Of a stretch of DNA of 64,000 nt, positions 31,734 through 64,000 are shown piece after piece. The translations under genes and the position numbers were made by a program. The first letter of the stretch is position 1. Each line of letters begins with the position of its first letter. The DNA lies in contig JAZJZM010000019.1 in NCBI GenBank assembly GCA_040389865.1, forward strand, positions 17,423 to 81,422, given 5' to 3'. The DNA is from Bacteroidota bacterium. Its GTDB lineage: Bacteria; Bacteroidota; Bacteroidia; 2-12-FULL-35-15. Under the pieces are notes generated by a model. It searched no databases. It was not told where the DNA came from and saw only the letters and a program-made list of their open reading frames with translations.

Positions 31734-31894
31734 AGAGCCTGTTTAAATTTTATATAAAAGAATAACAATATTGCTTGTTGGAGCCATCCAATTCTCGACT
31801 CCGCTCGAAATGACCATGTGCGCTGGTATTTCGAGCGGAGTCGAGAAATCGTGTGAAGGCTGGAAACTGTTTGAATAAAATTTAAACAGGCTCT
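31734..31894. mobile_element. MITE-like element copy A (161 bp) with 20-bp terminal inverted repeats and a central 22-bp-stem hairpin
   Basis: The TIRs are 'agagcctgtttaaattttat' (31734-31753) and its reverse complement 'ataaaatttaaacaggctct' (31875-31894). The central 'aattctcgactccgctcgaaat'-gaccatgtgcgctggt-'atttcgagcggagtcgagaaat' is a perfect inverted repeat. Confidence 0.7.
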
Positions 31895-37271: not shown

Positions 37272-40200
37272 ATGGCAAAGAGAAAAAAATCGGAGGAATT
37301 AATTATTGCCAACAAGGAACTTATCTTTCAAAATGAAGAGAAGGAAAAGCGGGCAGAAGAGTTAATTATTGCAAATATCGAACTTGCTTTTCAAGATGAA
37401 GAAAAAGAAAAACGTGCTGCGGAGTTAATTTTAGCTAACATAGAGTTAGCTTTTCAGGATGTGGAGAAAGAAAAAAGAGCGGCTGAATTAATTATTGCTA
37501 ACAAGGAACTTGTATTTCAAAACGCAGAGAAAGAAAAACGTGCGGCCGAGTTGATCATTGCTAATAAAGAACTTGTTTTTCAAAATGATGAGAAAGAAAA
37601 ACGGGCTGAGGAATTGATCGTTGCTAATAAAGAACTTGTTTTTCAGAATGATGAAAAAGAAAAACGTGCTGCGGAGTTGATCATTGCAAACAAAGAACTT
37701 GTTTTTCAAAACGATGAGAAAGAAAAACGTGCCGCTGAGCTGATCGTAGCTAACAAAGAACTTGCTTTTCAAAACGAAGAGAAAGAAAAACGTGCAGCCG
37801 AGTTAATTGTTGCTAATAAAGAACTTGTTTTTCAGAATGATGAAAAAGAAAAACGAGCTGCGGAGTTGATCATTGCAAACAAAGAACTTGTTTTTCAAAA
37901 CGATGAGAAAGAAAAACGTGCCGCTGAGCTGATCGTAGCTAACAAAGAACTTGCTTTTCAAAACGAAGAGAAAGAAAAACGTGCAGCCGAGTTAATTGTT
38001 GCTAACAAAGAACTTGCTTTTCAAAATGACGAGAAAGAAAAACGAGCGGCTGAGTTGCTCATCGCTAATAAAGAACTGATCTTTCAAAACGATGAGAAAG
38101 AAAAACGAGCGGCAGAGCTAATTGTAGCGAACAAAGAACTTGCTTTTCAAAATGATGAAAAAGAAAAACGTGCAGCCGAGTTATTCATAGCTAATAAAGA
38201 ACTTGTATTTCAAACCGGGGAAAAAGAAAAACGTGCCGCGGAGTTGGTAATAGCCGACATAGAGCTTGTTTTTCAAAATAAAGAAAAAGAAAAGCGCGAA
38301 ATCGCAAATAAAGAACTTGAAGCATTAAGTTATTCCGCAAAATTAGCATCTCAATATTCTCTTAGCCTGATTGAAGCAAGTCGGGATCCCTTAGTTACTA
38401 TCAGTACAGAAGGCAAGATCACTGATATGAATCAGGCAACTGTAAATATAACAGGCTTGACTCGTGAAAAACTTACGGGTACCGATTTTTTTGATTATTT
38501 CACCGAACCACAAAAGGCACGTGAAGTATATCAGGAAGTATTTGCGAAAGGATCTGTTGCCGATTCTCCGCTTACTCTTCGTCATAAAGCAGGGAAACTT
38601 ACTGATGTATTGTTCAATGGCTCGGTTTATAAAGATGATCAGGGAAATGTACTGGGAGTGGTGATCGTGGCGAGAGATGTTACTGCCCAAAAATTACTTT
38701 CTAAATATTCGTTAAGTCTTATTGAGGCAAGTCTTGATCCATTGGTTACGATAAGTACTGAAGGTAAGATCACGGATATGAATGAGGCCACTGCAAATAT
38801 TACCGGTATGAGCCGTGACCAATTAACGGGTACCGATTTTTTTGATTATTTCACCGAACCACAAAAGGCTCGTGAAGTTTATCTGGACGTGTTTGCGAAA
38901 GGTTCTGTTGCCGATTCTCCACTTACACTTCGTCATAAGGATGGGAAGCTTACGGATGTATTATTCAACGGATCGGTTTATAAAGACGACAGAGGGAATG
39001 TGCTTGGTGCCGTTGTGGTAGCAAGAGATATTACTGAACAAAAAAGAATAGCAACTGAATTGACTGAAGCGAAAATATTTGCCGAGTTGGCAACAGGTAT
39101 TGCGGAGGAAGCAAAAGCTAAAGCCGAAAGTGCCACACGAATAGCCGAAGATGCCGTGAAAGCGAAGCAACAATTTTTGTCAAACATGAGTCACGAAATT
39201 CGTACACCAATGAATGCGATCATTGGATTTACGAAAGTAGTATTAAAAACAGAGCTGTCGGTAAAACAAAAGGAATATTTGTCGGCCATAAAAATGAGTG
39301 GTGATGCATTGATCGTGCTCATTAACGATATACTCGATCTTGCTAAGGTAGATGCAGGAAAAATGTCCTTTGAGAAAACACCTTTCAAAATGAAAGCATC
39401 CATAGCATCCATGCTTCATTTGTTTGAGACAAAAATTCAGGAAAAGAATTTACAGCTTGTTAAGGAATACGACAATAAAATTCCTGATGTGTTAGTTGGC
39501 GATCCGGTTCGTTTACACCAGATCATATTAAATTTGGTGAGTAACGCTGTAAAGTTTACAACTTATGGAAAAATTACTGTAAGTGTTCATTTAGTGAGTG
39601 AGGACGAAGAAAAAGCAACCATTGAATTTGCAGTTATGGATACCGGGATTGGAATAGCGGAAAATAAAATAGAAAGAATCTTCGAAAACTTTCAGCAGGC
39701 AACCAGCGGCACTTCAAGATTATTTGGTGGAACAGGATTAGGACTTGCAATTGTTAAACAATTGGTAGAACCGCAAGGGGGAAGTCTTTTTGTAACAAGT
39801 AAAATTGATGAGGGTTCTACTTTTAGTTTTACGTTAACTTTTCAAAAAACAAAAGCGGAAGCCGAATTGGTAACTGAAGTTGCGGAATTGGATTCCGAAA
39901 TAAAAAATATAAAAGTATTGGTGGTGGAAGATATTGCACTCAATCAATTACTAATGAAAACATTGTTGGATGATTTCGGATTTGAACGCGATATTGCTGC
40001 AAATGGACAAATAGCCATCGAAAAATTGCAAGCTAAATCTTATGATATTATTTTGATGGACTTGCAAATGCCTGTAATGAATGGCTTTGAAGCTACCGAA
40101 TATATTCGTAATAAAATGAATTCTAAGATCCCGATCATCGCCTTAACTGCCGATGTAACTACAGTGGATCTGGCAAAATGCAAAGCGGTTGGCATGAATG

Positions 40201-40676
40201 ATTATATTGCAAAGCCTGTTGATGAAAGAGTATTATATAGTAAAATAGTGGGCCTGGTAAAAAAGCCTGTATTTGTTAATATCCAAAAGGAAAAAGAAAA
40301 CATTGAAACTGAGAAGTTAAAATGTATTGACCTGAAATATTTAAACCACCGCACAAAATCAAATCCAACAATAATGATGGAAATGATTTCACTTTATTTG
40401 GAGCAAACTCCACCTTTGATCAGCACAATGAAACAAAGTTTGTTGGATCAGGATTGGAATTCATTGCGCGCTGCAGTACATAAAATGATTCCCTCCTTTT
40501 CAATAATGGGCATTCATATAGATTTTGAAAATATGGCGAAAAAAGTTCAGGAGTATTCAAGTATCCAGGAACGAACGCATGAGATACATGACTTAGTGAT
40601 ACAGCTTGAAGATGTTTGTTTACAGGCATGTAAAGAGTTGGAAGAAGAATTTAATACGATTAAAAATAAGAAATAA
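37272..40676 (+). CDS. Hybrid sensor histidine kinase: 16 x 21-aa coiled-coil repeats, 2 PAS, HisKA, HATPase_c, REC, HPt
   Basis: Repeats 'ELIIANKELVFQNDEKEKRAA' x16. PAS blocks 'LIEASRDPLVTIS.EGKITDMN.AT.NITG'. H-box 'SHEIRTPMNAIIGF'. G2 box 'GGTGLGLAIVKQLVE'. REC 'ILMDLQMPVMNGFEAT'. HPt 'AVHKMIPSFSIMG'. Confidence 0.9.
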   Translation: MAKRKKSEELIIANKELIFQNEEKEKRAEELIIANIELAFQDEEKEKRAAELILANIELAFQDVEKEKRAAELIIANKELVFQNAEKEKRAAELIIANKELVFQNDEKEKRAEELIVANKELVFQNDEKEKRAAELIIANKELVFQNDEKEKRAAELIVANKELAFQNEEKEKRAAELIVANKELVFQNDEKEKRAAELIIANKELVFQNDEKEKRAAELIVANKELAFQNEEKEKRAAELIVANKELAFQNDEKEKRAAELLIANKELIFQNDEKEKRAAELIVANKELAFQNDEKEKRAAELFIANKELVFQTGEKEKRAAELVIADIELVFQNKEKEKREIANKELEALSYSAKLASQYSLSLIEASRDPLVTISTEGKITDMNQATVNITGLTREKLTGTDFFDYFTEPQKAREVYQEVFAKGSVADSPLTLRHKAGKLTDVLFNGSVYKDDQGNVLGVVIVARDVTAQKLLSKYSLSLIEASLDPLVTISTEGKITDMNEATANITGMSRDQLTGTDFFDYFTEPQKAREVYLDVFAKGSVADSPLTLRHKDGKLTDVLFNGSVYKDDRGNVLGAVVVARDITEQKRIATELTEAKIFAELATGIAEEAKAKAESATRIAEDAVKAKQQFLSNMSHEIRTPMNAIIGFTKVVLKTELSVKQKEYLSAIKMSGDALIVLINDILDLAKVDAGKMSFEKTPFKMKASIASMLHLFETKIQEKNLQLVKEYDNKIPDVLVGDPVRLHQIILNLVSNAVKFTTYGKITVSVHLVSEDEEKATIEFAVMDTGIGIAENKIERIFENFQQATSGTSRLFGGTGLGLAIVKQLVEPQGGSLFVTSKIDEGSTFSFTLTFQKTKAEAELVTEVAELDSEIKNIKVLVVEDIALNQLLMKTLLDDFGFERDIAANGQIAIEKLQAKSYDIILMDLQMPVMNGFEATEYIRNKMNSKIPIIALTADVTTVDLAKCKAVGMNDYIAKPVDERVLYSKIVGLVKKPVFVNIQKEKENIETEKLKCIDLKYLNHRTKSNPTIMMEMISLYLEQTPPLISTMKQSLLDQDWNSLRAAVHKMIPSFSIMGIHIDFENMAKKVQEYSSIQERTHEIHDLVIQLEDVCLQACKELEEEFNTIKNKK
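37296..38304 (+). repeat. 63-bp tandem repeat array (16 units) encoding a 21-aa (three-heptad) coiled-coil repeat
   Basis: Several units are identical over more than 120 bp, e.g. 37650-37780 and 37840-37970. Confidence 0.9.
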
Positions 40677-41433: not shown

Positions 41434-44400
41434 ATGAGATCGATCGCTACCACTAAAAAGAAGAAATCACCAACCAAAAAAAATGTTGAAGATCATTCTT
41501 TTCCTATCGTGGCTATTGGCGCTTCATTAGGTGGTTTAGAAGCGCTTACCTCTTTATTGAAAAATTTACCTTCCAATACCGGAATGGCATATATTTATGT
41601 GCAACACTTAAGCCCTGACCATAAAAGTTTACTAACTTCTATAGTATCCAAGATAACTAAAATGAAAGTTCAGGAGATAGAGGATATGGCGCACATGGCT
41701 CCGGATAATGTGTATGTGATCCCCTATAATAAAATAATTAAAGTTACTGACGGACACATTAAATTGCTTCCCCGTCCAAAAAGCAGTTCTGCCATTTCCA
41801 TTGATGTTCTGTTCTCGTCACTTGCTAAAACGCATAAAAAGAATGTTATTGGTGTGATCCTTTCTGGCAGCGGCACTGATGGTACAAACGGATTAAAAGC
41901 GATCAAAAAAGCGGGAGGAATGACAATTGCACAAGATGATTCCGCGCAAGCAAACAGTATGCCCAACTCGGCTATTGCCTCTAATGTTGTTGATTTTATT
42001 TTATCTCCTAAAGAAATTGCCGGGCATTTAGCAACATTTAGCAAAAATGATTTTTTGAAACCTGACCTTGAAAGTAAACAGAAAGAAGAAGTTAGTGAAA
42101 ATAGTAATCATGATCTGAAAACTATTTTCGGAATTTTATTTAAAAAAACCGGTGTGGACTTCAATCATTATAAGATGTCCACCATTAAAAGGCGATTGAA
42201 CAATAAAATGCTTCAATGCGGAGTAAAAACAGTAAAGGAATATGTAAAATTATTGCTCAAAAAAAACAGTGAGGTTGATCTTCTTTACAAGGATCTGCTT
42301 ATTAACGTAACTAGTTTTTATAGAGATAAGGACGCATTTCAGTATTTAAAAACAACCTTGTTTCCAAAGCTTCTTGAGGGTAAAGCACCGGGAGAAGTAA
42401 TTCGGATATGGATTCCAGCCTGCTCTACCGGTCAGGAAGCTTATTCCATTGCCATGATGCTGACTGAGCTGCAGGAAAATAAAAAAAAGAAAATACCTTT
42501 CCAGATCTTTGGTACCGATCTTAGCGATCAGGCAATTAGTGCTGCACGCAAAGCCGAATATTCGGCAAGTGATCTTATTCCTATTTCAAAGAAATTCAAA
42601 GATCGTTACTTTACTAAAACGGGTGACAACTACCGTATTGTTAAAGAGCTTCGCGAATTGTGTGTATTTGCTCCTCATAATATTCTGCGCGATCCACCTT
42701 TTTCACGTATGGATTTTATCAGTTGTCGCAATCTTCTTATTTATTTTGATTCTTCTGCACAGAAACGGGTTTTTTCAATCCTGCATTTTGCTTTGAATAA
42801 CCAGGGGAGTTTAATGCTTGGTCAAGCAGAAACGGTAGGCACGTCTTCTCAGCTTTTTATCACTACAAATGCTAAATTTAAGATTTACTCTCGTAAAAAG
42901 AGTACCGGAGTGAGGAAGATACTTGAATTAACACCACATTTTCCGCGTACAAATTTTTATAGTAAAAAAATAAACACACCTGTTAAAAGTTTGAGCGTAA
43001 ATTTAATGGGTGTTGAGAATGCTATTGATTCTGCTATTCTCTCAAAGTACATGCCTGCGTGTGCAGTTATAAACAAGGACATGGAAATTCTCCAGTTCAG
43101 AGGACCGATCTCTTTATTTCTCGCACATCCTTCCGGCAAAGCAAGTCTAAATATTTTAAAAATGACAAGACCTGAATTTGCCTTTGAACTTCGTAATGCA
43201 ATTCAAAAAGTAATAAAAACAAAACAGTCGGTGCAAAAAGCGGGCATCGAAATTAAGGTCGAGTCTGTTTTTCGTATGATGTCTTTGGAAGTTTCTCTTC
43301 TTAAGATTGATTGGGACGAGCCATTGCTACTTATTGTTTTTACATTACAGGAACAGGTTGAAAAATTTATTGAAATTGGTAATAGCGGGAAAAGCAATTC
43401 GATCCATGATGCCCAAAGAATAGTAAAGCTGACCGAGGAGTTGAACAATACCCGGATGGAAATAAATTCCATTATCGAATCGCAAGAAGCTACTTTCGAG
43501 GAATTACAAGCAGCCAATGAAGAAATTGTTTCAAGTAATGAAGAGTTTCAAACCTTAAATGAAGAACTTGAAACATCGAAAGAAGAAATTGAGACTACCA
43601 ATGAAGAGCTAATTTCTATCAATCAGGAATTACAAATGCGTAATGATCTTTTAACAGAATCGCATGAGTATTCGGAGGCCATCATTGCTACCATCCATGA
43701 GCCTATGCTTGTGCTAAACAAGGACTTTATTATACAATCCGCCAATAAATCGTATTATAAAAAATTTCTTGTTAAAAAAGAAGAAACGGAAAAGAAATTG
43801 TTTTTTGAATTAGGAAATAAGCAATGGAATATTCCAAAACTTCGTGAGGTGTTAAATGATATTCTTACCAAAAACAAGAGTTTTGAAAATTTTGAAGTGA
43901 CACATGCATTCCCGGGAATAGGCGAAAAAATAATGTTGCTTAATGCACATCTTGTCCTTCAAAAAGAGAACAGAGAACAACTAATTCTGCTTGCCATTGC
44001 TGATGTTTCCGAGTTAAGGAGATTGAGTATAGAGCTCAAAGTGAAAGACGCTAAAGTATTAAAAAACGAAGAGAAAGGGAAATGGGCGGCAGAGTTAGTT
44101 ATTGCCAACAAAGAACTTGCCTTTCAAAATGAGGAGAAAGAAAAACGAGCAGAGGAGTTGATCATTGCCAATAAAGAACTTGTTTTCCAGAACAATGAAA
44201 AAGAAAAACGTGCTGCGGAGTTGGTCATTGCAAACAAAGAACTTGCTTTTCAAAATGATGAAAAAGAAAAACGTGCTGCCGAGTTAGTAATTGCAAACAA
44301 AGAGCTTGCATTTCAAAACGAAGTGAAAGAAAAACGAGCTGCTGAGTTGGTTATTGCAAACAAAGAACTTGCTTTTCAAAATGATGAGAAGGAGAAACGT

Positions 44401-46944
44401 GCAGCCGAGTTAGTTATTGCAAACAAAGAACTTTTATTTCAGGCAGGCGAGAAAGAAAAACGAGCAGCCGAGTTAGCCATTGCAAAAATAGAACTTGACT
44501 TTCAAAATAAAGAGAAAGAAAAACGGGAAATTGTAAATAAAGAACTTGAAGCGTTCAGTAATGCAACTAAATTAGCATCTCAATATTCTCGAAGTTTGAT
44601 CGAAGCAAGTTTAGATCCGCTTGTTACTATCAGTGCAGAAGGAAAGATATTGGATGTAAATAATGCATCGATAAAAGTGACGGGTGTTCCACGTGATAAA
44701 CTCATTGGCACTGATTTCTCCCGTTATTTTACAGAACCATTAAAAGCACAAGAAGGCTATAAGCAGGTTTTTGAAAAAGGATCTGTGTCGGATTATCCTT
44801 TAACAATAAAACATAAAAATGGAAACTTAACGGATGTATTGTACAATGCATCTGTTTATAAAGATGAGAAAGGTAATGTTCTTGGAGTTTTTGCTGCTGC
44901 ACGTGATATAACCGAACAAAAAAGAATTGAAGTTGATCTGGGTAAAAGTTTAAAGGAAATTTCGGATTACAAATATGCACTTGATGAATTTTCTATTGTT
45001 GCCATCACAGACCAGAAGGGAATTATCAAACATGCAAATGACAACTTTTGCAAAGTTTCAAAATTCACGAGAGAGGAATTAATAGGCGCGGATCATCGCA
45101 TTATTAATTCCGGCCATCATCCGAAAGAATTTATCAATGATTTATGGACAACAATTGCCAATGGCGGGATTTGGAGAGGTGAATTAAAAAATGCGGCAAA
45201 GGATGGAACTATTTATTGGGTGAATACTACTATTGTTCCTTTCCTGAATGAACAAGGAAAACCTTACCAGTATGTTGCAGTAAGAACGGACATTACCGAT
45301 CAAAAAAGAATAGAAACAGAATTGATAGAAGCAAAAGTGTTTGCTGAGTTGGCAACCGGTATTGCAGAAGAAGCCCAGAGCAAGGCGGAAAGCGCTACAT
45401 TAATAGCTGAAGATGCGGTGAAAGCGAAACAGCAGTTTTTATCAAACATGAGTCATGAAATCCGCACACCAATGAATGCGATCATTGGATTTACCAAAGT
45501 GGTATTGAAAACAGATCTAACGACAAAACAAAAGGAATATCTTTCAGCGATAAAAATGAGTGGTGATGCATTGATCGTACTTATAAACGATATCCTTGAT
45601 TTGGCAAAGGTAGATGCAGGCAAAATGACATTTGAGAAAACACCTTTCAAAATGGAGTCTTCCATTTCAGCGATGCTCCATTTGTTTGAGACAAAAATTC
45701 AGGAAAAGAATTTGGAATTAGTTAAAAAATACGATAGTAATATTCCTCAAGTGTTAATAGGTGACCCGGTTCGCCTGCATCAGATCATTTTAAATTTGGT
45801 GAGTAATGCAGTGAAATTTACAACAAAAGGGAAAATTACTGTTAGTGTTCTTCTATTAACTGAAGATGAAAATAATGCAAGCCTGGAATTTGCGGTTTCG
45901 GATACCGGAATAGGCATAGATGGAAACAAAATAGAACATATTTTTGAAAATTTTCAGCAAGCTTCAAGCAGCACTTCAAGGTTGTTTGGTGGGACAGGTT
46001 TAGGCTTGGCCATTGTAAAACAATTGGTAGAACCTCAGGGAGGTAGCATTAGGGTGAAAAGTAAAATTGGTGAAGGTTCTACTTTTAGTTTTATATTAAA
46101 TTTTCAAAAAACAAAGGCTGAAGCAGAATTAGAAACAGAAATGCTGGAGTTGGATACTGAGATCAAAAACATAAAAGTATTAGTGGTTGAAGATATTCCA
46201 CTTAATCAACTATTGATGAAAACACTATTGGATGATTTTGGATTTGAACGTGATATCGCTTCAAATGGAAAAATTGCCATCGAAAAGCTGCAAACTAAAT
46301 CGTATGATATTATTTTGATGGATCTGCAGATGCCTGAAATGAATGGATTTGAAGCAACAGAATACATTCGTAATAAAATGAATTCTAAGATCCCTATTAT
46401 GGCTTTAACGGCCGATGTGACCACCGTTGATCTGGAAAAGTGCAGAGCCGTTGGGATGAACGATTACATTGCAAAACCCGTTGATGAAAAATTATTGTAC
46501 AGTAAAATAATTAGTTTAGTAAAAAAGCGAATGCCTTTAAAAACGAAGGAATCTATTGGAAATGAAAATAATTTCAATGAAAAATTAAAATGCACTGACC
46601 TGAAATATTTAATAAAACGCACAAAAAATAGTCCGAAATTAATGATGGAAATGATCTCACTTTATTTGGAACAAACTCCACCTTTAATCAACTCAATGAA
46701 AAAAAGCGTGCAGGATAAAGATTGGGATTCGCTATACGCAGCAGTGCATAAAATGATACCATCCTTTTCAATAATGGGTATGAGTATTGATATTGAAAAT
46801 ACAGCAAAAAGAGTTCAGGAATACGCAGGTACAAAACAACGAACTGAAGAAATTTCAGGCTTGGTTTTACATCTCGAAAAAGTTTGTGCACAAGCATGTA
46901 AAGAATTGGAACTGGACTATACGAATTTTAAAAATGCTGGCTAG
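41434..46944 (+). CDS. CheB methylesterase - CheR methyltransferase fusion to a PAS/hybrid histidine kinase (1,836 aa)
   Basis: CheB motifs 'IVAIGASLGGLEAL' and 'ILSGSGTDGTNGLKAIKKAGGMTIAQD'. CheR SAM-site motif 'IRIWIPACSTGQEAYSIAMML'. An 'EEL(Q/E)(S/T).NEEL' heptad linker. 7 x 21-aa repeats. 3 PAS. H-box 'SHEIRTPMNAIIGF'. HATPase_c, REC, HPt. Confidence 0.9.
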   Translation: MRSIATTKKKKSPTKKNVEDHSFPIVAIGASLGGLEALTSLLKNLPSNTGMAYIYVQHLSPDHKSLLTSIVSKITKMKVQEIEDMAHMAPDNVYVIPYNKIIKVTDGHIKLLPRPKSSSAISIDVLFSSLAKTHKKNVIGVILSGSGTDGTNGLKAIKKAGGMTIAQDDSAQANSMPNSAIASNVVDFILSPKEIAGHLATFSKNDFLKPDLESKQKEEVSENSNHDLKTIFGILFKKTGVDFNHYKMSTIKRRLNNKMLQCGVKTVKEYVKLLLKKNSEVDLLYKDLLINVTSFYRDKDAFQYLKTTLFPKLLEGKAPGEVIRIWIPACSTGQEAYSIAMMLTELQENKKKKIPFQIFGTDLSDQAISAARKAEYSASDLIPISKKFKDRYFTKTGDNYRIVKELRELCVFAPHNILRDPPFSRMDFISCRNLLIYFDSSAQKRVFSILHFALNNQGSLMLGQAETVGTSSQLFITTNAKFKIYSRKKSTGVRKILELTPHFPRTNFYSKKINTPVKSLSVNLMGVENAIDSAILSKYMPACAVINKDMEILQFRGPISLFLAHPSGKASLNILKMTRPEFAFELRNAIQKVIKTKQSVQKAGIEIKVESVFRMMSLEVSLLKIDWDEPLLLIVFTLQEQVEKFIEIGNSGKSNSIHDAQRIVKLTEELNNTRMEINSIIESQEATFEELQAANEEIVSSNEEFQTLNEELETSKEEIETTNEELISINQELQMRNDLLTESHEYSEAIIATIHEPMLVLNKDFIIQSANKSYYKKFLVKKEETEKKLFFELGNKQWNIPKLREVLNDILTKNKSFENFEVTHAFPGIGEKIMLLNAHLVLQKENREQLILLAIADVSELRRLSIELKVKDAKVLKNEEKGKWAAELVIANKELAFQNEEKEKRAEELIIANKELVFQNNEKEKRAAELVIANKELAFQNDEKEKRAAELVIANKELAFQNEVKEKRAAELVIANKELAFQNDEKEKRAAELVIANKELLFQAGEKEKRAAELAIAKIELDFQNKEKEKREIVNKELEAFSNATKLASQYSRSLIEASLDPLVTISAEGKILDVNNASIKVTGVPRDKLIGTDFSRYFTEPLKAQEGYKQVFEKGSVSDYPLTIKHKNGNLTDVLYNASVYKDEKGNVLGVFAAARDITEQKRIEVDLGKSLKEISDYKYALDEFSIVAITDQKGIIKHANDNFCKVSKFTREELIGADHRIINSGHHPKEFINDLWTTIANGGIWRGELKNAAKDGTIYWVNTTIVPFLNEQGKPYQYVAVRTDITDQKRIETELIEAKVFAELATGIAEEAQSKAESATLIAEDAVKAKQQFLSNMSHEIRTPMNAIIGFTKVVLKTDLTTKQKEYLSAIKMSGDALIVLINDILDLAKVDAGKMTFEKTPFKMESSISAMLHLFETKIQEKNLELVKKYDSNIPQVLIGDPVRLHQIILNLVSNAVKFTTKGKITVSVLLLTEDENNASLEFAVSDTGIGIDGNKIEHIFENFQQASSSTSRLFGGTGLGLAIVKQLVEPQGGSIRVKSKIGEGSTFSFILNFQKTKAEAELETEMLELDTEIKNIKVLVVEDIPLNQLLMKTLLDDFGFERDIASNGKIAIEKLQTKSYDIILMDLQMPEMNGFEATEYIRNKMNSKIPIMALTADVTTVDLEKCRAVGMNDYIAKPVDEKLLYSKIISLVKKRMPLKTKESIGNENNFNEKLKCTDLKYLIKRTKNSPKLMMEMISLYLEQTPPLINSMKKSVQDKDWDSLYAAVHKMIPSFSIMGMSIDIENTAKRVQEYAGTKQRTEEISGLVLHLEKVCAQACKELELDYTNFKNAG
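44087..44535 (+). repeat. 63-bp tandem repeat array (7 units); paralogous to 37296-38304
   Basis: 'AELVIANKELAFQNEEKEKRA' units. The nucleotide sequence is near-identical to the repeat units of the first kinase. Confidence 0.9.
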
Positions 46945-47113
46945 TCTTATGTTAAAATGATTTTGATGTCATTCCAACCGAAGTGGAGGAATCTTTTAAT
47001 TGATTACAAGATGCTTTGACTTGCTCAGCTTAACTTTTTGCATCATTTTATAATTACATAACACTAGGAATCATTAAGTTTATTTAAAAAATAAAATTCC
47101 CTTTGGACTTTGC

Positions 47114-48139
47114 TTATTTAATTTTCCAGCGCTTAGTTCTCCAATCATTTTGTTCGGTCTTATTTAAAAAGGTCCATGCTACAATACGGCTTACTTTTTG
47201 CCCCTGAGCCATCTCAATAGTTTTTACATAAAGTGCTTTTACTTTTTGAAGTGCTCTGTATACTGCAGGAAGATTGGATTTTTTAGAGATAAGTGTTGAA
47301 TACCAAAAACAGGTTGTTGGCAATTGAGCGCTTTGTTCTATCATTTTATTAACGAATGATTCTTCGCCTCCATTGCACCATAATTCAGTGTTTTGTCCGC
47401 CAAAATTCAAATCGGTTTTACTGTTTTTTTTAATACCTAAGTTTTTCCATTTTCGCTCGGTACCAGCTTCTGCTTCCGCTAAGGACGCATGGAAAGGAGG
47501 ATTACAAATTGTCATATCAAATACTTCACCCGGCTTTATAATGTCCCTGAAAATAGAGGATGAAGATTTCTGTAACCTGCATTCAACAGCTTCATTTAAA
47601 GGTTCATTTGCAGCAATGATTTGTTTGGCAGATCTTATCGCTGCTGGATCAATATCCGAGCCAACAAAATGCCAGCCGTATTCACTATGTCCTATAATAG
47701 GATATACACAATTGGCACCTACGCCAATATCAAGTACTTTAATGGACTTTCCTTGAGGGAGTGTTCCATTGTTGCAGGAGCTTAACAGATCGGCCATATA
47801 ATGGATATAATCCGCCCGGCCGGGAATAGGGGGACAAAGATAATTTGCAGGAATGTCCCAATTGGAGATGCTATAGAAATATTTTAATAATGCCTTATTT
47901 AGTGTTTTTACTGCAACAGGATCGCTAAAATCGATGGATTGATTATTATATTTATTAATGGAAACAAAAGCTCCAAGTTCAGGACAAGCAAGGCTAAGCT
48001 GGTCGAAGTCGTATCTAAAGCGGTGCTTGTTCCGGGGATGCAGATCGCTCTTTTCTAATGGAAATATTTTTGATTTTTCTGACAAAATAAATTGGCTCCG
48101 ATTGTTTTTGTTTTTTCCTTTTATCACATTCAAATGCAT
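47114..48139 (-). CDS. rlmF: 23S rRNA (adenine1618-N6)-methyltransferase RlmF
   Basis: '[16 protein letters not shown]' is an RlmF-type N-terminus. SAM motif '[16 protein letters not shown]'. Catalytic 'NPPFH'. Confidence 0.8.
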
Positions 48140-48189
48140 TGTGAACGCTTTACAAAATTAATATTATTTTCGATCAAATATTTGTAATT

Positions 48190-48272
48190 GATTACAGGCA
48201 TCGCATCTCTTCTTGAAAAGACCTGATCGCAGTCATTTCGAGCCTGTCGAGAAACGCGCGTTAGCTTTCAAT
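48190..48272. repeat. ~80-bp direct repeat, copy 1 (core-repeat family, 'tcatttcgagc...cgagaaacg' type)
   Basis: 'caggcatcgcatctcttcttgaaaagacctgatcgcagtcatttcgagcctgtcgagaaacgcgcgttagctttca'. Confidence 0.8.
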
Positions 48273-48317
48273 GGTGAAGTTATAATGGCTCCAAAGTCAA
48301 TGCGCGCTGACATCTTG

Positions 48318-48397
48318 TGCTGATTGCAGGCATCTCTTCTTGAAAAGGCCCGTGCGCAGTCATTTCGAGCCTGTCGAGAAACGTGCGTTCGCTTTCA
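48318..48397. repeat. ~80-bp direct repeat, copy 2 (~90% identical to 48190-48272)
   Basis: 'caggcatctcttcttgaaaaggcccgtgcgcagtcatttcgagcctgtcgagaaacgtgcgttcgctttca'. It lies in the divergent rlmF/PLD intergenic region. Confidence 0.8.
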
Positions 48398-48476
48398 TAG
48401 GAATTTTTTATTTGGTCAAATAAAATTTAAGATGCTCCTAAAGATTTCATTATTTTTACAATTAGATAAAACCCAC

Positions 48477-50003
48477 ATGAAAAAGATCCTTTTCCTTTAT
48501 ACGATTCTACTTTACTCTTGTTCAACGGAAACAAAAAATGAGGAGAGTAAAGTTCCGGATTTTTGTTCTTCCATTCATTGTGAAACCTCACCCGGACTTT
48601 CAAAACAACTCGATTCTCTATCAGGCCTGATGCAGCATAAAACCGGAGTTTACACTTTAGAGGATGGCGATGGATCAATGGTAGCGAGAGCCTGGTTAAG
48701 TGAGAACGCAGAGAAAACCATTGATATTCAATATTTTATTTTCAGTGCTGATAATGTAGGTTTAATTGCTGCTGATTATCTCGTTCGCGCTGCCGATAGG
48801 GGCGTGAAGGTCAGGATCCTTGTGGATGATATTATGGTGGAGGCCGATGAAAATAAACTGCTGACTTTAAATTCTCATAAAAATATTTCCATCAAAATAT
48901 ATAATCCTACCACAAATGTTGGGAAAAATATATTCGAAAAAGTGAATAGTCTTACAACTAATTTCGTTGGAGCCAATCAACGGATGCATAACAAAACATT
49001 TACTGTGGATGGTAAAGTAGTAATTACAGGAGGCCGTAATATAGCGGACGAGTATTTTGATTATGACCACGAATATAATTTCCGCGATAGAGATGTTCTA
49101 TTGATCGGAGGAGTGGTAAATAAAGTGCAACGGTCTTTTAACGATTTCTGGAGCAGCCCTATAAGCAAGCCGGTGGAAGAGTTGGTTGATACATCGAAAT
49201 TTAATTTTAATGCCCCGGACCGGTTTGAATTGTTGCATCAGTATGCCTGTGATTCAAATAATTTTTGGCCCCAGGTTCGGGAAAAAATAAAAAACATACC
49301 GATCGTTTTTGAGGAGATACAAAGATCCGGAAAGCTTCAATGGGTGGATAGTGTTGTGTTTGTGAGCGACAGGCCTGGTAAAAATGATGGAACTCATGGC
49401 TTGGATGGGGGAGGGATCTGTACCACCGCTTTGATCAATTTAGTGAAGCATGCAAAAAAAACGATTGTGATTCAAACGCCTTATTTGATAACCACCCAAT
49501 TAGGGAAGAACCTTTTTCAGGAGGCTGTGGCGCGTGGTGTGGATGTTAAAATAATGACCAACAGTCTCGCATCTACAGATAATTTGGAAGCCTTCAGTGG
49601 TTATCAGCGCGACAGGAGGCTGCTTTTACAAACGGGGCTTAGGATATATGAATATAGGCCTGATGCTGCCATTCGTTATAAAATAATGACAGGCGCATTA
49701 CAAAAGGAAATAAATTATACTCCTGTGTTTGGTTTGCATGCAAAGTCAATGGTAATAGATGGAACAATAACTGTTATTGGTACGTTCAATCTTGACCCAC
49801 GAAGTGCGAATTTGAATACCGAATGTGTGACCGTTATTTATTCTTCAACTATTACTAAAGAAGTTTTAACGGGAATGGAAGAAGAGTTAAAGCCGGAAAA
49901 TTGCTGGGAAACTACAATGAAATTTAATCCTGATTCAAAAGCGGGCTTGAAAAAAAATTTAAAATTAATGCCCATGAAAATTATTCCCAAAGGCATTTTA
50001 TAA
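48477..50003 (+). CDS. Phospholipase D / cardiolipin-synthase-like protein with two HKD motifs; probable lipoprotein
   Basis: HKD motifs 'HNKTFTVDGKVVITGGRNIADEY' and 'HAKSMVIDGTITVIGTFNLDPRS'. The ATG at 48477 gives a signal peptide 'MKKILFLYTILLYSCS'. The ORF-track TTG start at 48324 runs through the repeat copy and is judged an artefact. Confidence 0.8.
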   Translation: MKKILFLYTILLYSCSTETKNEESKVPDFCSSIHCETSPGLSKQLDSLSGLMQHKTGVYTLEDGDGSMVARAWLSENAEKTIDIQYFIFSADNVGLIAADYLVRAADRGVKVRILVDDIMVEADENKLLTLNSHKNISIKIYNPTTNVGKNIFEKVNSLTTNFVGANQRMHNKTFTVDGKVVITGGRNIADEYFDYDHEYNFRDRDVLLIGGVVNKVQRSFNDFWSSPISKPVEELVDTSKFNFNAPDRFELLHQYACDSNNFWPQVREKIKNIPIVFEEIQRSGKLQWVDSVVFVSDRPGKNDGTHGLDGGGICTTALINLVKHAKKTIVIQTPYLITTQLGKNLFQEAVARGVDVKIMTNSLASTDNLEAFSGYQRDRRLLLQTGLRIYEYRPDAAIRYKIMTGALQKEINYTPVFGLHAKSMVIDGTITVIGTFNLDPRSANLNTECVTVIYSSTITKEVLTGMEEELKPENCWETTMKFNPDSKAGLKKNLKLMPMKIIPKGIL

Positions 50004-50098
50004 CCAACATTTCAGCAACCTCTGTCATTCCGGGCTTTTTCGCGAGGGATCTTGTTCTTGAATTACAAATCGTTAATGGTTGACAAGTGACCATTAAA

Positions 50099-50232
50099 AC
50101 CACATAGAGACATAGAAAGGGAGGTAAAAGGCGTAAACCAGAAAAAGAAAAGATAGTTTTTTCTCCGCCAAAGGCGAAGAAAATTATGTGATCCTATTAG
50201 TTTCCTTCAATTTTTGTTTCTATGTTTCTATG
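50099..50232. repeat. 134-bp element bounded by 20-bp inverted repeats (19/20 match), with an inner hairpin
   Basis: 'accacatagagacatagaaa' (50099-50118) versus 'tttctatgtttctatgtggt' (50213-50232). The inner hairpin is 'ttttctccgcc-aaa-ggcgaagaaaa'. It sits between the convergent PLD and CDGSH genes. Confidence 0.6.
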
Positions 50233-50243
50233 TGGTTAAATAA

Positions 50244-50465
50244 TTACTTCTTAGGAGGCAAAGCAAAAGCAATTGCTTCATGCTCAAAATGTCCATTGTG
50301 TGAACCATCACAAAAGGGTTTGTTTTTCGATAGCCCGCAACGACAGATCGAAACAACTTCTCTTCCTGCCAGATCATAAGCATTCCCATTTTTATCTACA
50401 ATTTCGAAATCACCTTCTAATCGGATAGAACCATTGTTGTTTACAGTAATTTTTGTTTTAGGCAT
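50244..50465 (-). CDS. CDGSH iron-sulfur domain protein
   Basis: 'CRCGLSKNKPFCDGSH' is a CDGSH-type 2Fe-2S motif. Confidence 0.8.
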   Translation of the reverse strand: MPKTKITVNNNGSIRLEGDFEIVDKNGNAYDLAGREVVSICRCGLSKNKPFCDGSHNGHFEHEAIAFALPPKK

Positions 50466-50518
50466 CTTAATTAATTTTTAATTTCGTTTTTTTACTTTAC
50501 CTTACTTCTTTCGAAAGC

Positions 50519-50580
50519 ATTGTGTGCGCTATCATTTCGAGCAAGGTTAAGAAAGCGCGTTTGCCTTCAAAAGCAATTTA
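50519..50580. repeat. Core-repeat family copy (solo)
   Basis: 'tgtgcgctatcatttcgagcaaggttaagaaagcgcgtttgccttcaaaagcaat' is ~80% identical to the internal part of MITE copy B at 54432-54594. Confidence 0.65.
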
Positions 50581-50609
50581 TTGTTTCTTGTTGAAAATGT
50601 GTCAAATCA

Positions 50610-52439
50610 CTAAGGCTTTGGAATTAATTTTAATTTCGCACTCAGCTCTTTTACCTCCAACTTTGTTTTCTCCACATTTTCCTGGAATTCCATAATTAAT
50701 GGATTAGTACTTTTTGATTTTCCGAAAAAGCTCAGATTGTTTTCCAATTGGTCCACTTCAGTTTGAAGTTTTTTAATTTTATCTTGAAGCACCGTACGCT
50801 CTTTTCTTATTTGCTCCATCCCTTGTGGAGATTTAAGCATTTGCTCATATTTTAAACGGTAGAACATTTTATCATCCACATTTGATTTCACCTTCATTCT
50901 TTCAAGCAAGTTTTCAATTGCCTTACCAAAAGCGTTGTTAAGTCTATCACTGTCCTTTAAAGGTGTTTCACCTACAAGAGCCCACTCTTCCTGTAATTTT
51001 TTCAGTTCCTCAATACTTTGGTGGATATCTTCAGAAGGCGCAAACAGATCAGTTTTTGCAATAAGTGCTTCTTTGGCCTGAATATTTGCTTTAAGAGTGT
51101 TTTCCTTCTCCACAACCTGGTTGGTCTTGCTTTCAAAAAAATGATCACAGGCTTTACGGAATCGCTTCCAAACAGCGTCAGAGTCTTTGGTTGCAACCTG
51201 TCCGATGGTTTTCCATTCCACTTGCAGTTTTTTTAATACTTCCGCAGTGGCAATCCATTCGGAGCTTTCCTGCAATGCTTCCGCTTTTAAGCAAAGCGCT
51301 ATTTTCTTTTCAAGATTGCCTGAGAATTCGGTGCGTTGCTTCGCATAAAACTGATCCAGCCCCTGGTGTAAAAGCACACGGGCTGTTTTAAAGCGCGTCC
51401 AGCATTTTCCATTATCACTTTTTGGAACAAAACTTATTTTTTGCCAGGCCTCCCATATAGCATTCTCTTTTTCAGTTGCTTCGCGACAGCCTTTATGTGA
51501 AACAAACTCTTCTTGACCAAGTAGTTCTATTTGCTCACACAAAGCTAATTTGGCAGCAAGGTTACTTTTTTGTTGTTTTTGTATTTGAGCTGTATGTTCT
51601 TTTTTACGTTCAACTATTTTATCACCTGCAGTTTTAAAACGCAGCCATAAATTATCTTTTAATTCTCTGCCCGAATTTCGGATCTCACTCCATTCTTCCT
51701 GCAGCATCGTAAGGGCTTCCAATGCTTTCTTTAAGGAAGGTTCTGCATTCAAGAGTTCTGCCTTTTCACAAAGTTGGATTTTATACTCAACGTTTTTTTT
51801 CTTATCCAGTACATTCAGTTCATTGTTGATCTTCACCATGTCATAGAACTTACCTGTAAGAAAAAAATAATTTTCTCTTAACGTATGCGTATCTTGGATC
51901 GGGACATTGCCTGTAACGCGCCATTTACTTTGAAGTGCCTGAAACTTGTGGTACGAAGCCGAGAAGTTCTCATTACCTTTTAACAGCTCTTTTAATTCTT
52001 CAATGATCAACTTTTTTGTTGAAAGATTCTCCTGTGCTGATTTTTCCTTTTGCTTTCGCTGAAGTACTTTTTTAGCGTTTAAGCTTTTCCAGACCTGTTC
52101 TGCTTTTTCATCCAAAGGGTCTGCCTTGGGTTCAAAATCTTCGGCAGGACTGCCGTCTTCAGTGAAAATTTGAAGTTTGCGATCATACTCTTCCTTTGCC
52201 AGTTCATCTAATTTTTTTTTAATGATCACTGCTGCAGGAAATATTGAATGTACCTCTTCCTGTTCCAGGTATTCAGTTAGCTTATCTATAAGTTGAGTTT
52301 TACTCAAGCCTTCTATTTCGTCTTCAGAAATGAGTACATCAACATTTTCTGATTCTAATTCATCAGTAGAGATTACCGGAATTGCCACCTGCGTAGGATC
52401 TTCATTTACTACCGGGTTCTTTTCTTCATTATTTTGCAT
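50610..52439 (-). CDS. DUF349-domain protein
   Basis: About six repeats of the DUF349-type unit '..LQEEW..IG.....D..LW.RF..A.D.FF..K'. ATG 52439 ('MQNNEEKNPV') is the likely start; the ORF is open to 52475. Confidence 0.7.
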   Translation of the reverse strand: MQNNEEKNPVVNEDPTQVAIPVISTDELESENVDVLISEDEIEGLSKTQLIDKLTEYLEQEEVHSIFPAAVIIKKKLDELAKEEYDRKLQIFTEDGSPAEDFEPKADPLDEKAEQVWKSLNAKKVLQRKQKEKSAQENLSTKKLIIEELKELLKGNENFSASYHKFQALQSKWRVTGNVPIQDTHTLRENYFFLTGKFYDMVKINNELNVLDKKKNVEYKIQLCEKAELLNAEPSLKKALEALTMLQEEWSEIRNSGRELKDNLWLRFKTAGDKIVERKKEHTAQIQKQQKSNLAAKLALCEQIELLGQEEFVSHKGCREATEKENAIWEAWQKISFVPKSDNGKCWTRFKTARVLLHQGLDQFYAKQRTEFSGNLEKKIALCLKAEALQESSEWIATAEVLKKLQVEWKTIGQVATKDSDAVWKRFRKACDHFFESKTNQVVEKENTLKANIQAKEALIAKTDLFAPSEDIHQSIEELKKLQEEWALVGETPLKDSDRLNNAFGKAIENLLERMKVKSNVDDKMFYRLKYEQMLKSPQGMEQIRKERTVLQDKIKKLQTEVDQLENNLSFFGKSKSTNPLIMEFQENVEKTKLEVKELSAKLKLIPKP

Positions 52440-52787
52440 AATACAAATTTTAAAAATATTATTTGGATAGCCCAATTTATCGGATCAATGGTTTTTAACC
52501 AAATAAGATCTTATCAAGCTCAAGCTCTTATGCATCTAATTTACAACAATTTTTAAAATGGACATTTAAAATAAAATAAAAGCTTCAAGTTGTTTAATGT
52601 TCAATATCTATAAAGCGATTACTTTATTAAAAGGAATGTGTGTTTTTGAAATGAAAACGATGCGGAAAATTCAGGAGATCTTTTTGAAGGTTTTTCGAAA
52701 ACAGAAAAAGCTCCCAAAGTGTTGATTTTCTATAAAATGCAGTTTTTATTCACAATTTTAATATTGTTTAATCAGAAGTGAATTTCT

Positions 52788-54431: not shown

Positions 54432-54594
54432 AGAGCCTGTTTAAATTTTATTCAAAATGGTTTTTTGCCTTCGCTCTATTTCTAGTCTCCACTCAAAATG
54501 ACCATGTGCGCTGTCATTTCGAGCGATTCGAGAAAGGTGCATTAGCTTTGTAAGCAATATTGTTATTCTTTTATATAAAATTTAAACAGGCTCT
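54432..54594. mobile_element. MITE-like element copy B (163 bp); its arms are inverted relative to copy A
   Basis: It carries the same 20-bp TIRs 'agagcctgtttaaattttat' ... 'ataaaatttaaacaggctct'. The arm 'caagcaatattgttattctt' is the reverse complement of copy A's 'aagaataacaatattgcttg'. The central hairpin is degenerate ('ctccactcaaaatgaccatgtgcgctgtcatttcgagcgattcgagaaa'). Confidence 0.7.
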
Positions 54595-61653: not shown

Positions 61654-64000
61654 ATGAACTGCAGTCCAATCAAATATATATATACTCAAATTCCATTCAA
61701 TAGAAGTTTTGTTAAGCAACAAAAGCAAACGCTGCGTTTTTTAACAAATGCAATTTGTTTATTTTTTATTGTTATTTTATTTCAACAAAAAGCAATTGGA
61801 CAAAACCTTGGTATTAATACTACAGGCGCATTACCTGATTCATCGGCTATGCTCGATATCATAAGCCCTAATAAAGGATTGCTTATTCCAAGAATTAGTT
61901 TAACATCTACTACAGACGCTACTACTATTGCAAACCCCGCTATTTCATTGTTAGTGTATAATAACAATGTTTCTATGATCGGTGGAGGCTTAGGTTTTTG
62001 GTATTGGAATGGAACACAATGGGTACAGGCAATTGGCCCTGTGGGGGCTACTGGTTCAACAGGAGCAACGGGAGCTGACGGAATATTTGGAACAACTGGT
62101 GAAACGGGTACTGCTGGCTCAAATGGAAGTACAGGTTCAACAGGTGTAACTGGTGCTGAAGGAATAATAGGAGCAACCGGAGAGACAGGTTCTGCTGGAA
62201 CAAATGGAGCTATAGGTTCAACTGGTGCAACTTCAAATACAGGTGCAACAGGCAGTACAGGTTCAACAGGTTCTACGTCTAATACAGGTTCAACAGGTAG
62301 TACAGGCTCTACAGGTTCAACATCTAACACAGGTTCAACTGGAGCAACAGGAAGTAGTTCAACAGGTGCGACTGGTTCAACTGGTTTCACATCAAACACA
62401 GGTTCAACAGGAATTACCGGCTCAACCGGTTCCACTTCAAATACAGGAGCAACAGGAAGCACTGGCTCAACTGGTTCAACCGGGAGGACTGGCTCAACCG
62501 GTTCAACAGCTAACACAGGGTCTACGGGAGAAACTGGGACAACAGGTGCGACCGGCTCAACCGGTTCTACCTCAAATACAGGGTCAACAGGAAGCACAGG
62601 ATCAACTGGTTCAACATCTAATACTGGTTCAACAGGAAGCACAGGTTCAACATCAAATACCGGATCGACTGGGGCTACAGGTTCAACCGGTTCTACGTCC
62701 AATACGGGGGCAACAGGAAGCACAGGATCAACCGGTTCCACTTCAAATACAGGAACAACAGGAAGTACCGGTTCGACTGGTTCAACAGCTAACACTGGTT
62801 CAACAGGAGCAACGAGTTCAACAGGAAAGACAGGATCAACGGGCTCAACCGGTTCTACTTCAAATACAGGAACCACTGGCTCTACTGGTTCTACATCTAA
62901 TACCGGTTCCACGGGCGCGACAGGTTCAACAGGGACTACGTCAAATACGGGTTCAACAGGAAGTACAGGTTCAACTGGCTCGACATCAAATACAGGAGCA
63001 ACTGGGACAACAGGTGCGACCGGCTTAACCGGTTCAACAGCCAACACCGGTTCAACCGGTTCTACTTCAAATACAGGTGCAACAGGAAGTACAGGTTCAA
63101 CAGCTAACACAGGTTCAACGGGATCAACTGGTTCCACTTCAAATACAGGATCAACTGGAAGTACCGGCTCAACAGGAGCAACTGGAGCAACCGGTTCTAC
63201 TGGTGCTACTTCAAATACAGGTTCGACCGGAAGAACCGGTTCAACAGCTAGCACGGGTTCCACTGGCGCAACAGGTTCTACAGGGACAACAGGAAGTACC
63301 GGTTCAACTGGTTCAACAGCTAACACAGGGTATACAGGAGCAACTGGGACAACAGGTGCGACCGGTTCTACCTCAAATACAGGAACAACAGGAAGTACCG
63401 GCTCGACTGGTTCAACAGCTAACACAGGTTCTACCGGTGCGACCGGCTCAACAGGTTCAACAGCTAACACCGGTTCATCGGGATCAACGGGTTCCACTTC
63501 AAATACGGGATCAACAGGAAGTACTGGCTCTACCGGTTCTACAGGAGCAACTGGTTCTACTGGTGCTACTGGAACTACTTCAAATACAGGTGCAACAGGA
63601 AGTACCGGCTCGACTGGTTCAACAGCTAACACTGGTTCAACTGGAGCAACGAGTTCTACAGGTTCAACAGGAAGGACAGGGTCAACTGGTTCAACGGGTT
63701 CTACTTCAAATACAGGAACCACTGGAAATACCGGTTCCACAGGCTCAACCGGTTCTACATCTAATACAGGTTCAACAGGTGCGACCTCTAATACCGGTTC
63801 AACGGGAGCAACTGGAAGTAGTTCTACTGGTGCTACCGGTTCAACTGGCTCGACATCAAATACAGGTGCAACAGGAAGCACAGGCTCAACGGGTTCGACC
63901 TCTAATACCGGTTCAACGGGAGCAACTGGAAGTAGTTCTACTGGTGCTACCGGTTCAACTGGCTCGACATCAAATACAGGTGCAACAGGAAGCACAGGCT
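61654..64000 (+). CDS. Second giant collagen-like fibre protein, 5' part (paralog of 1629-13307); it runs off the window
   Basis: ATG 61654 follows a TAA at 61636-38. The N-terminal module '[68 protein letters not shown]' is about 60% identical to the first gene's module. It is followed by G-X-T triplets with regular 'STSNTG'/'STANTG' Gly-to-Ser interruptions. The six-frame track omitted it because there is no stop inside the window. Confidence 0.85.

Follow-up and report, generated by a model that had tools for sequence, protein, structure and literature searches.

Direct repeats between rlmF and a PLD-domain lipoprotein gene of an uncultured Bacteroidota bacterium as decayed copies of a MITE-like palindromic element

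Introduction

What are two nearly identical direct repeats doing between the divergently transcribed genes of an rlmF-type methyltransferase and a PLD-domain lipoprotein? The question was raised by a stretch of 64,000 nucleotides of a Bacteroidota bacterium (contig JAZJZM010000019.1 of assembly GCA_040389865.1, positions 17,423 to 81,422), hereafter called the window, which has a G+C content of ~33% and encodes a CHU_C / type IX secretion domain, both of which assign it to the Bacteroidota. In the original prediction, made from the sequence alone, the two repeats at 48.2-48.4 kb were counted among the copies of a dispersed core motif of ~70 bp, for which three readings were offered: tandem operator sites of a regulator, the core of a miniature inverted-repeat transposable element (MITE), or a structural RNA motif resembling the repetitive extragenic palindromes (REPs). 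The analysis described here leads to the second of these, with the addition that the core is itself of a known hairpin type. The 48-kb repeats derive from a MITE-like palindromic element, of which they are copies both decayed and locally duplicated; at the heart of this element lies a head-to-head dimer of hairpins of the YGTC-tagged REP or NTS/SRM type. The repeat is a selfish one at the DNA level, and for the family as a whole it is likely that we are dealing with non-coding palindromic dispersed repeats acting as DNA, and not with a regulatory site, the hairpin core having NTS/SRM architecture.

Copies of the motif in the window

Five plus-strand matches to GTGCGCWRTCATTTCGAGC with at most three mismatches were found in the window, at 31818, 48225, 48352, 50524 and 54506; shuffled sequences hold 0.03 matches on average, and none of 100 shuffles attained five. 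An nhmmer profile built from the copies, one of the checks that had been proposed, regained all five (E 1e-11 to 1e-15) and added a sixth copy on the minus strand (1287-1333, E 1e-9), together with the palindromic partner arm of the element named MITE A (31789-31817 (-), E 2.5e-4). The equivalent arm of MITE B, at 54480-54509 (-), reaches a profile E of just 2, and its support comes from the regular expression for the hairpin unit (54479 (-)). Every copy in the window lies between open reading frames (ORFs), so that the predicted minimum of five copies and their intergenic position both hold. The weaker relative announced at ~50027 was also recovered, as TGTCATTCCGGGCTTTTTCGCGAGGGATC at 50023-50051, while two further members had been overlooked: a degenerate core between both tandem copies, at 48302-48320, and a unit of another flavour, TGTCATTCCAACCGAAGTGGAGGAATC, at 46967-46993. 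One copy needs to be redrawn. That at ~31810, in MITE A, does have its plus-strand match (31818), but this match is the opposite arm of the palindrome, and the long-linker half that is equivalent to the other copies is on the minus strand. In a repeat search of the whole window, dominated by 9-bp collagen-like repeats, the list of inverted repeats alone was usable.

The hairpin unit and the full element

The building block of the family is a hairpin unit of ~26 nt composed of (T/A)GTC + ATTTC + GAGC + loop (GNAG/YTG(T)) + CGA + GAAA, that is (T/A)GTC-ATTTCGAGC-loop-(T)CGAGAAA, with GGAGT, TTGT, CTGT, GAAG(T) and GTAGT as its commonest loops. Two such units are set head-to-head round a centre of 11-12 nt, CCATGTGCGCTG, to make a dimer. 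This dimer is in turn enclosed in an element of 155-165 bp which reads, in order, a 20-bp terminal inverted repeat (TIR, AGAGCCTGTTTAAATTTTAT), a long linker of ~38 nt, the dimer, a short linker of ~26 nt and a second TIR. Twelve full copies of 154-165 bp were found, two in the window (161 and 163 bp, MITE A and MITE B) and ten in other metagenome-assembled genomes (MAGs), besides three longer TIR pairings of 281-309 bp. The motif of the original prediction corresponds to the centre, one unit and the beginning of the long linker. The core sits inside both the 161- and the 163-bp element; its assignment to a TIR-flanked MITE is supported, and the data likewise support the view that the solo copies are truncated or decayed copies of the same element.

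The state of preservation differs from copy to copy. MITE A is the sole copy in the window with an intact hairpin (DNA fold -30.1 kcal/mol, z-score -9.2), and the units at 48231 and 48358 are decayed. Some units carry a nested loop insertion of ~26 nt, CCTTCGACTCCGCTCAGGACAGGCTC, which resembles a partial unit in reverse complement and is present or absent among orthologous copies; it was seen in related loci, namely L021 (~7130-7170, in reverse-complement coordinates), L004 and L059 (1300-1345 and ~3110-3150).

An old insertion in the rlmF-PLD spacer

The methyltransferase gene (47114-48139 (-), PF05971) and the ATG of the lipoprotein gene (48477) are separated by a divergent spacer of 337 nt. 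Within it, 48203-48270 and 48330-48397 agree at 62 of 68 positions with a start-to-start distance of 127 nt, very much the pair of direct repeats, about 128 bp apart, that had been predicted, and their likeness continues upstream to TGATTRCAGGCATC, at 48189 and 48321. In both copies the left arm of the dimer is decayed to TCTCTTCTTGAAAAGRCC, the intact counterpart being CTTTCTCGANNNGCTCGAAATGACC; that of copy 1 was recognised by way of the orthologous copies in L021 and L059.

The history of the site is best read from its relatives. The orthologous spacer is found in three loci, L004 (JAZKBF01), L021 (JAURXZ01) and L059 (JAZKBX01), with 90-94%, 85% and 83-88% identity to the window, respectively. 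When the four are aligned, the 50-70 nt beside each start codon are conserved and the repeat block varies by whole units: there are two in the window and in L059, three in L021 and four to five in L004, with different spacings. An intact or decayed TIR always stands after the last unit of these arrays. The 127-nt duplication, left flank TGATTRCAGGCATC included, belongs to the window lineage alone. This is consistent with an insertion of some age that slippage or recombination has since remodelled. The pair at 48.2-48.4 kb is an old insertion of the element, which has lost its left TIR and whose inner left arm has decayed, and it was later reshaped by the duplication and deletion of whole units.

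Presence and absence are also seen elsewhere. MITE A, which fills the spacer between the BON and Usp genes in the window, is missing from the same spacer in four relatives (L104, L105, L108 and L111). Their spacer contains instead an intrinsic terminator of canonical form, AAAAAACGGAT...ATCCGTTTTTT (L104 10670-10796, L108 7087-7513, L111 3911-4007), and in the window (31716-31928) this terminator is gone, with MITE A, a 24-bp hairpin and no T-run, in its place. The PLD-CDGSH spacer holds a dimer in L004 and L059 and none in the window, and the unit at 46967 recurs in L004 but not in L021 or L059. About 67 kb of distinct syntenic DNA of relatives (L104-L111), chosen independently of the motif, contained zero units, so that the density of copies in the window is not to be extrapolated.

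Distribution, dimers and inversion of the centre

How far does the family extend? A scan of 185,579 species genomes with the pattern GCGCWRTCATTTCGAGCN{5,7}AGAAA gave at least 102 loci, and the unit statistics reported here are drawn from the loci listed. Among the matches listed, uncultured Bacteroidota MAGs account for most, a single MAG contributing many loci, and about a quarter lie elsewhere (Chloroflexi, Syntrophobacterales, Binatia, Betaproteobacteria, Gammaproteobacteria, Peribacteria, Dialister, Nitrospirales and others). The unit takes the form YGTCATTTCGAGC-GNAG-CGAGAAATC(T) outside the Bacteroidota, and occurs without TIRs in at least eight other phyla. In the AT-rich loci a mere 8 of 174 units fall within crude ORFs, though ~80% of the bases are in ORFs; by type of spacer, 62 units are tandem, 37 divergent and 33 convergent. 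Clustering of the ORFs within 1.5 kb of units returned housekeeping or surface-protein families only, and the ORFs between widely spaced inverted units in L037, L053 and L063 were hypC or junk, with no nuclease among them. Full-text literature searches with literal repeat strings gave unrelated primer sequences only, and the RepRanger paper held no family-level information bearing on the repeat. As an aside, non-Bacteroidota units (L013, L023, L037, L055, L208) often have next to them short heptamer-like sequences repeated in tandem, for example TTGAGAA, ACGAATT and GTGACTG.

Two features of the dimers bear on how they are copied. Among the loci listed there are 54 head-to-head dimers, and in 41 of them the loop variant is identical in both arms, where 17 such cases would be expected, which makes the dimer, and not the monomer, look like the copied unit. 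Furthermore, the centre is found in both orientations among copies that are otherwise co-linear: once the flanks are aligned, the centre of MITE B (54500-54511) is inverted with respect to that of MITE A (31816-31827). The same is seen within one MAG (JAZKDU01), where two copies (L003, L086) have the centre CAGCGCGCTTG and two others (L045, L048) the centre CAAGCGCGCTG, in a manner that resembles flip/flop inversion.

Likeness to tagged palindromes of other bacteria

The unit recalls the CGTC-tagged REPs, whose tag may also be TGTC or CCTC, with a stem of 8-9 bp beginning A-T, T-A and a loop of 4-5 nt (Di Nocera, De Gregorio and Rocco, 2013, BMC Genomics 14:522, PMC3733652). These repeats are mostly head-to-head dimers, sometimes nested in larger palindromes; they are distributed over five phyla, Bacteroidetes included, have no dedicated transposase known, and comprise Neisseria dRS3 as well as Rickettsia RPE-4 and RPE-6 (PMC3733652). 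The present family shares with them an unpaired YGTC 5' of a short stem, a loop of 4-5 nt (GNAG(T) and YTG(T)), the predominance of head-to-head dimers, at times within larger palindromes, an intergenic and many-copy distribution over several phyla, and the want of a known dedicated transposase. The tag is TGTC or AGTC in the window units and YGTC in those of viral contigs, and a Y precedes GTC in 88% of the units that flank GIY-YIG genes (see below). With this architecture, and with a stem that covaries across flavours, the REP-like character once suggested for the motif is supported.

There are differences too. Compared with the YGTC-tagged REPs, the unit has a conserved internal purine-purine mismatch (GA vs AG/GA), and its apex is a GC-GNA-GC mini-hairpin. 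Outside the Bacteroidota, units of the form ATTTCGAGC-GAAG-CGAGAAAT have the basal A-T and T-A pairs but show the internal GA/AG mismatch. In the Bacteroidota form the basal A-T pair and the C tail at the 3' end are often gone, and in most window copies the basal A faces C or G. The Bacteroidota unit is, moreover, embedded in a 160-bp element with 20-bp TIRs and unequal linkers.

Another family of short palindromes is that of the REPINs and BIMEs with RAYT transposases, known from the work of Bertels and Rainey, Nunvar, and Ton-Hoang, in which an inverted doublet of short hairpins amplifies. Here as there, an inverted doublet can form a long hairpin, mosaic clusters of variable copy number occupy spacers, and subfamilies have symmetric arms. 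Unlike in REPINs and BIMEs, the tag is YGTC and not GTAG, no Y1 transposase was noticed nearby, and TIRs are present.

A possible link to Ssn nucleases

The NTS of Neisseria is dRS3 extended to 28 nt, CGTCATTCCCGCGMAVGCGGGAATCYRG (Chenal et al., 2025, Nat Commun 16:2388, PMC11893778). It is bound, as single-stranded DNA only, by SsnA, a GIY-YIG protein of 94 aa which cuts a few nucleotides upstream; the GTC that precedes the palindrome is critical, as is the C that follows (PMC11893778). Motifs akin to the NTS, termed SRM, occur on the flanks of thousands of ssn homologues (PMC11893778). NTS/SRM and the present units have the succession YGTC, AT-stem, loop, stem-AT and C in common, and both are scattered between genes.

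A query consisting of a consensus of small GIY-YIG proteins retrieved at least 7992 proteins of 95-100 aa with PF01541, a group for which NCBIfam has no model. Their catalytic residues Y7, Y18 and E65 are spaced as are Y6, Y17 and E64 of SsnA (GIY Tyr, YIG Tyr and Glu). The genes are bracketed by inverted units of the same architecture, like YGTCATTGCGAGC-GAAG-CGAAGCAATC, one right before the ATG and an inverted one right after the stop, and some are flanked by TGTCATCCCCGCGTAGGCGGGGATCCAG, which is nearly the Neisseria NTS. Of 80 such loci from metagenomes (L122-L201), 64 have a unit in the 350 nt upstream of the gene, 68 in the 350 nt downstream and 59 in both, and unit density amounted to 4.8 per kb in the flanks as against 0.59 per kb elsewhere.

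The stems at these loci come in several flavours (ATTGC, ATTCT, ATTCC, ATCCC, ATCCT). With a search pattern that makes no demand of complementarity, the pairs at stem position 4 are T-A (70), G-C (22) and C-G (15), and 308 of 333 cells are paired, compared with 239 +/- 4 in shuffles. Such covariation across flavours makes the window unit one flavour of the same structural family. The published SRM pattern, HGTCWYN(0-2)YYVSBRHN(0-5)WNVSBRGN(0-2)RNCYNB, matches NTS, NTSvar and, in the window, 50023-50054, and it misses the commonest class beside the GIY-YIG genes, YGTCATTGCGAGC-GNAG-CGAAGCAATC: SRM matches were obtained at 8 of the 80 loci and GAGC..CGA-class matches at 25, a looser hairpin detector flagging 64-68. 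That the unit would be a single-strand hairpin processed by an Ssn-type nuclease is in our opinion almost as probable as its contrary.

Weighing the explanations

Could the 48-kb pair nonetheless be regulatory? Two direct repeats, 91% identical, inside a 337-nt divergent spacer might well be tandem operators of a transcription factor controlling the rlmF and PLD promoters, but this explanation, which the original prediction had entertained, is not supported and we hold it to be highly improbable. The core is present in tandem, convergent and divergent spacers alike, in many genomes and beside unrelated housekeeping genes, and the genes that adjoin the pair include no regulator. Unit number and spacing vary among the four related genomes at the rlmF-PLD site, the conserved 50-70 nt beside the start codons fall outside the repeats, and the duplication is peculiar to one lineage, all of which argues against conserved operators. 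The other reading is that of a structural RNA motif. As REP-like elements working at the RNA level, the units would stabilise transcript 3'-ends, attenuate or terminate transcription in their spacers, and three observations lend this some colour: their density is highest in convergent spacers (33 units in 12.5 kb vs 62 in 60.5 kb of tandem spacer), MITE A occupies the BON-Usp spacer at the place of the relatives' intrinsic terminator, and the outer pairs of solo copies are compatible with G-U (GTGCGC/GYGCGT). However, there is no shortage of units in divergent spacers (37 in 22.7 kb), and they favour neither direction relative to transcription, 33 running with it and 29 against it. Whether folded as DNA or as RNA, the copies at 48.2, 48.35, 50.5 and 1.3 kb do no better than their shuffles, with z near 0; for RNA, the solo copies range from +0.5 to -0.9, one strand at 50.5 kb giving -2.0. 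Rfam gave no match in the whole window at gathering score and chance-level matches only (E > 2) in 48150-48480 at permissive E, and a tRNA scan of the window found none. A promoter and terminator scan, with a sigma-70 model ill-suited to Bacteroidota, placed nothing on the units and called no T-run terminator on any of them, and proteins of the SsnA type do not bind RNA (PMC11893778). The structured-RNA reading is thus without support, and an RNA-level function appears improbable to us.

A more serious competitor is a classical MITE, in which a DDE-type transposase would read the 20-bp TIRs, the hairpin-dimer core being only a passenger, or a historical insertion into a palindromic scaffold, with no link to Ssn. 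Bacterial MITEs, such as the Correia elements of Neisseria and the cyanobacterial Nezha, are like the present element in being ~160 bp long, non-coding, dispersed, bounded by TIRs and variably present between relatives, as the window copies and the BON-Usp and PLD-CDGSH spacers illustrate. The twelve full copies with their conserved TIRs, spread over several MAGs, and the three longer pairings speak for such an origin, as do the TA beside the ends of several copies and the fact that no GIY-YIG gene was found near any copy surveyed; REP dimers nested in larger palindromes, with no dedicated transposase, are on record as well (PMC3733652). Yet neither a transposase nor a parent insertion sequence or autonomous element with these TIRs turned up in ~0.9 Mb of loci, target-site duplication is inconsistent, the internal palindrome belongs to a hairpin family that crosses phyla and occurs without TIRs in at least eight others, and both the inversion of the centre and the symmetry of the arms point to hairpin chemistry rather than cut-and-paste. 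On balance, a classical MITE of this kind seems unlikely.

The preferred explanation, a DNA-level palindromic repeat with a hairpin core of NTS/SRM architecture, has to contend with evidence of its own. No clean pair of empty and filled sites with exact junctions is available for MITE A, the BON-Usp spacer being too diverged. Target-site duplication is ambiguous, with TA-like flanks in some copies only: over the 15 TIR pairings, from AT-rich genomes, the left ends are TA in 11, and the right starts are TA in 6, AA in 7 and TT in 2. In the loci surveyed, the units have no recurrent neighbour, be it a transposase gene or any other. On the side of the nuclease, the GIY-YIG proteins retrieved are presumed to be the Ssn family from their size, their catalytic-residue spacing and their NTS-like flanks. 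The SRM pattern misses the main units at 48231, 48358, 50530, 54512 and 31824, the main flavour ATTTCGAGC...CGAGAAA lying outside it. No ssn gene (small GIY-YIG, cd10448) was found beside this flavour: regular expressions and a hidden Markov model from alignment A1 detected no GIY-YIG gene near ATTTC-flavour units across 110 loci and 23 viral contigs, nor in the window itself. In the Bacteroidota unit the closing A-T pair is missing, and so, often, is the C that follows the palindrome and is of importance to binding by SsnA. Lastly, the old 48-kb copies may no longer be substrates for anything, and the decayed solo copies of the window are probably inert.

How the repeat might spread, and why it matters

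If the hairpin reading is correct, the unit would be a single-stranded DNA hairpin of the sort that small GIY-YIG Ssn nucleases bind and cleave a few nucleotides upstream, and the dimer would extrude as a long hairpin or a cruciform. Amplification and inversion of the centre might then proceed through single-strand or hairpin intermediates, or by means of a transposase reading the TIRs. A bolder proposal, to which we attach a low probability, goes further. The GAGC-GNAG-CGA hairpin, with its tandem purine mismatch and GCGNAGC mini-hairpin, and with an ATTTC flavour near-identical over ~26 nt in at least eight phyla, would be a distinct class of Ssn substrate missed by the SRM pattern. Within the Bacteroidota this hairpin would have become part of a 160-bp palindrome that amplifies itself, and whose centre would flip because the dimer is nicked there and copied through a fold-back hairpin. 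Were this true, it would amount to a rolling-hairpin-like spread, so far undescribed for chromosomal repeats.

Several consequences follow for the reader of such genomes. In annotation, the rlmF-PLD repeats should be entered neither as operators nor as an RNA gene, and spurious small ORFs over units are to be ignored. A repeat of uncultured Bacteroidota is here tied to the YGTC-tagged REP / NTS-SRM class, the protein partner of which, Ssn, was found only in 2025. The published pattern overlooks the commonest hairpin class flanking a large Ssn-like GIY-YIG family in metagenomes. Finally, the inversion of the centre in otherwise identical copies provides a testable hint as to how palindromic repeats are copied.

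Features and neighbourhood in the window

The coordinates of the repeats and of their remnants are collected in Table 1.

Table 1. Repeat copies, units and remnants of the element in the window
Feature	Position	Strand	Remarks
Diverged full-length copy	1246..1410	-	Unit 1301-1332; TIR-like ends AAGGAACTGTTAAATTTTAATC and CTAAAGTTTAAACAAGTTTTAG recognisable
MITE A, full 161-bp element	31734..31894		20-bp TIRs, long linker on the left; dimer 31792-31815 (-) / 31824-31849 (+); centre CCATGTGCGCTG
Canonical other-flavour unit TGTCATTCCAACCGAAGTGGAGGAATC	46967..46993	+	Common to L004; absent from L021 and L059
Tandem copy 1	48189..48277	+	Decayed left arm TCTCTTCTTGAAAAGACC, centre GATCGC, unit AGTCATTTCGAGCCTGTCGAGAAAC (48231-48255), start of long linker GCGCGTTAGCTTTCAATGG
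Degenerate third core GCGCGCTGACATCTTGTGC	48302..48320	+	Aligns with intact units of the orthologous arrays
Tandem copy 2	48321..48405	+	Duplicated left flank TGATTGCAGGCATC, decayed left arm, centre GTGCGC, unit 48358-48382, long linker
Decayed right TIR of the old MITE insertion, AAATAAAATTTAAGATGCTCC	48418..48438	+	Intact form ATAAAATTTAAACAGGCTCT; orthologous position in L059 still ATAATTTAAACAGGCTCT
Other-flavour unit TGTCATTCCGGGCTTTTTCGCGAGGGATC	50023..50051	+	With three 3' flanking bases (50023-50054) the sole window sequence fitting the published SRM pattern
Decayed copy between zf-CDGSH start and DUF349 stop	50495..50625	+	Unit 50530-50555; orthologous in L059, with nested insertion in the loop there
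MITE B, full 163-bp element	54432..54594		Orientation opposite to MITE A; decayed arms 54478-54503 (-) and 54512-54536 (+)

The copy at 50.5 kb has as its neighbours the gene of a zf-CDGSH protein (50244-50465 (-)) and that of a DUF349 protein (50610-52475 (-)). The PLD-CDGSH spacer also contains, at 50100-50235, a second, unrelated small element with 19-bp inverted ends, CCACATAGAGACATAGAAA ... TTTCTATGTTTCTATGTGG, of which an 87% identical copy is found in another MAG (L066 3379-3528); in L004 and L059, a hairpin dimer stands at that place instead.

Repetition of other kinds is found within the coding sequences. When the window is compared with L004 and L021 by BLAST, 37278-38660 and 44063-44527 yield ladders of matches that are shifted by 63 nt, which indicate that two large ORFs, 37272-40676 and 41434-46944, contain tandem 21-aa repeats. 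Another ORF (1629-13307 (+)), giant with its 3892 aa, contains hundreds of 9-bp-periodic repeats at ~1980-10200 and has a G+C content of 46-53%, well above the ~33% of the window; its product has the look of a protein with collagen-like Gly-X-Y repeats. The right end of the window (61782-63995 (-)) is occupied by a comparable repeat ORF, likewise rich in G+C.

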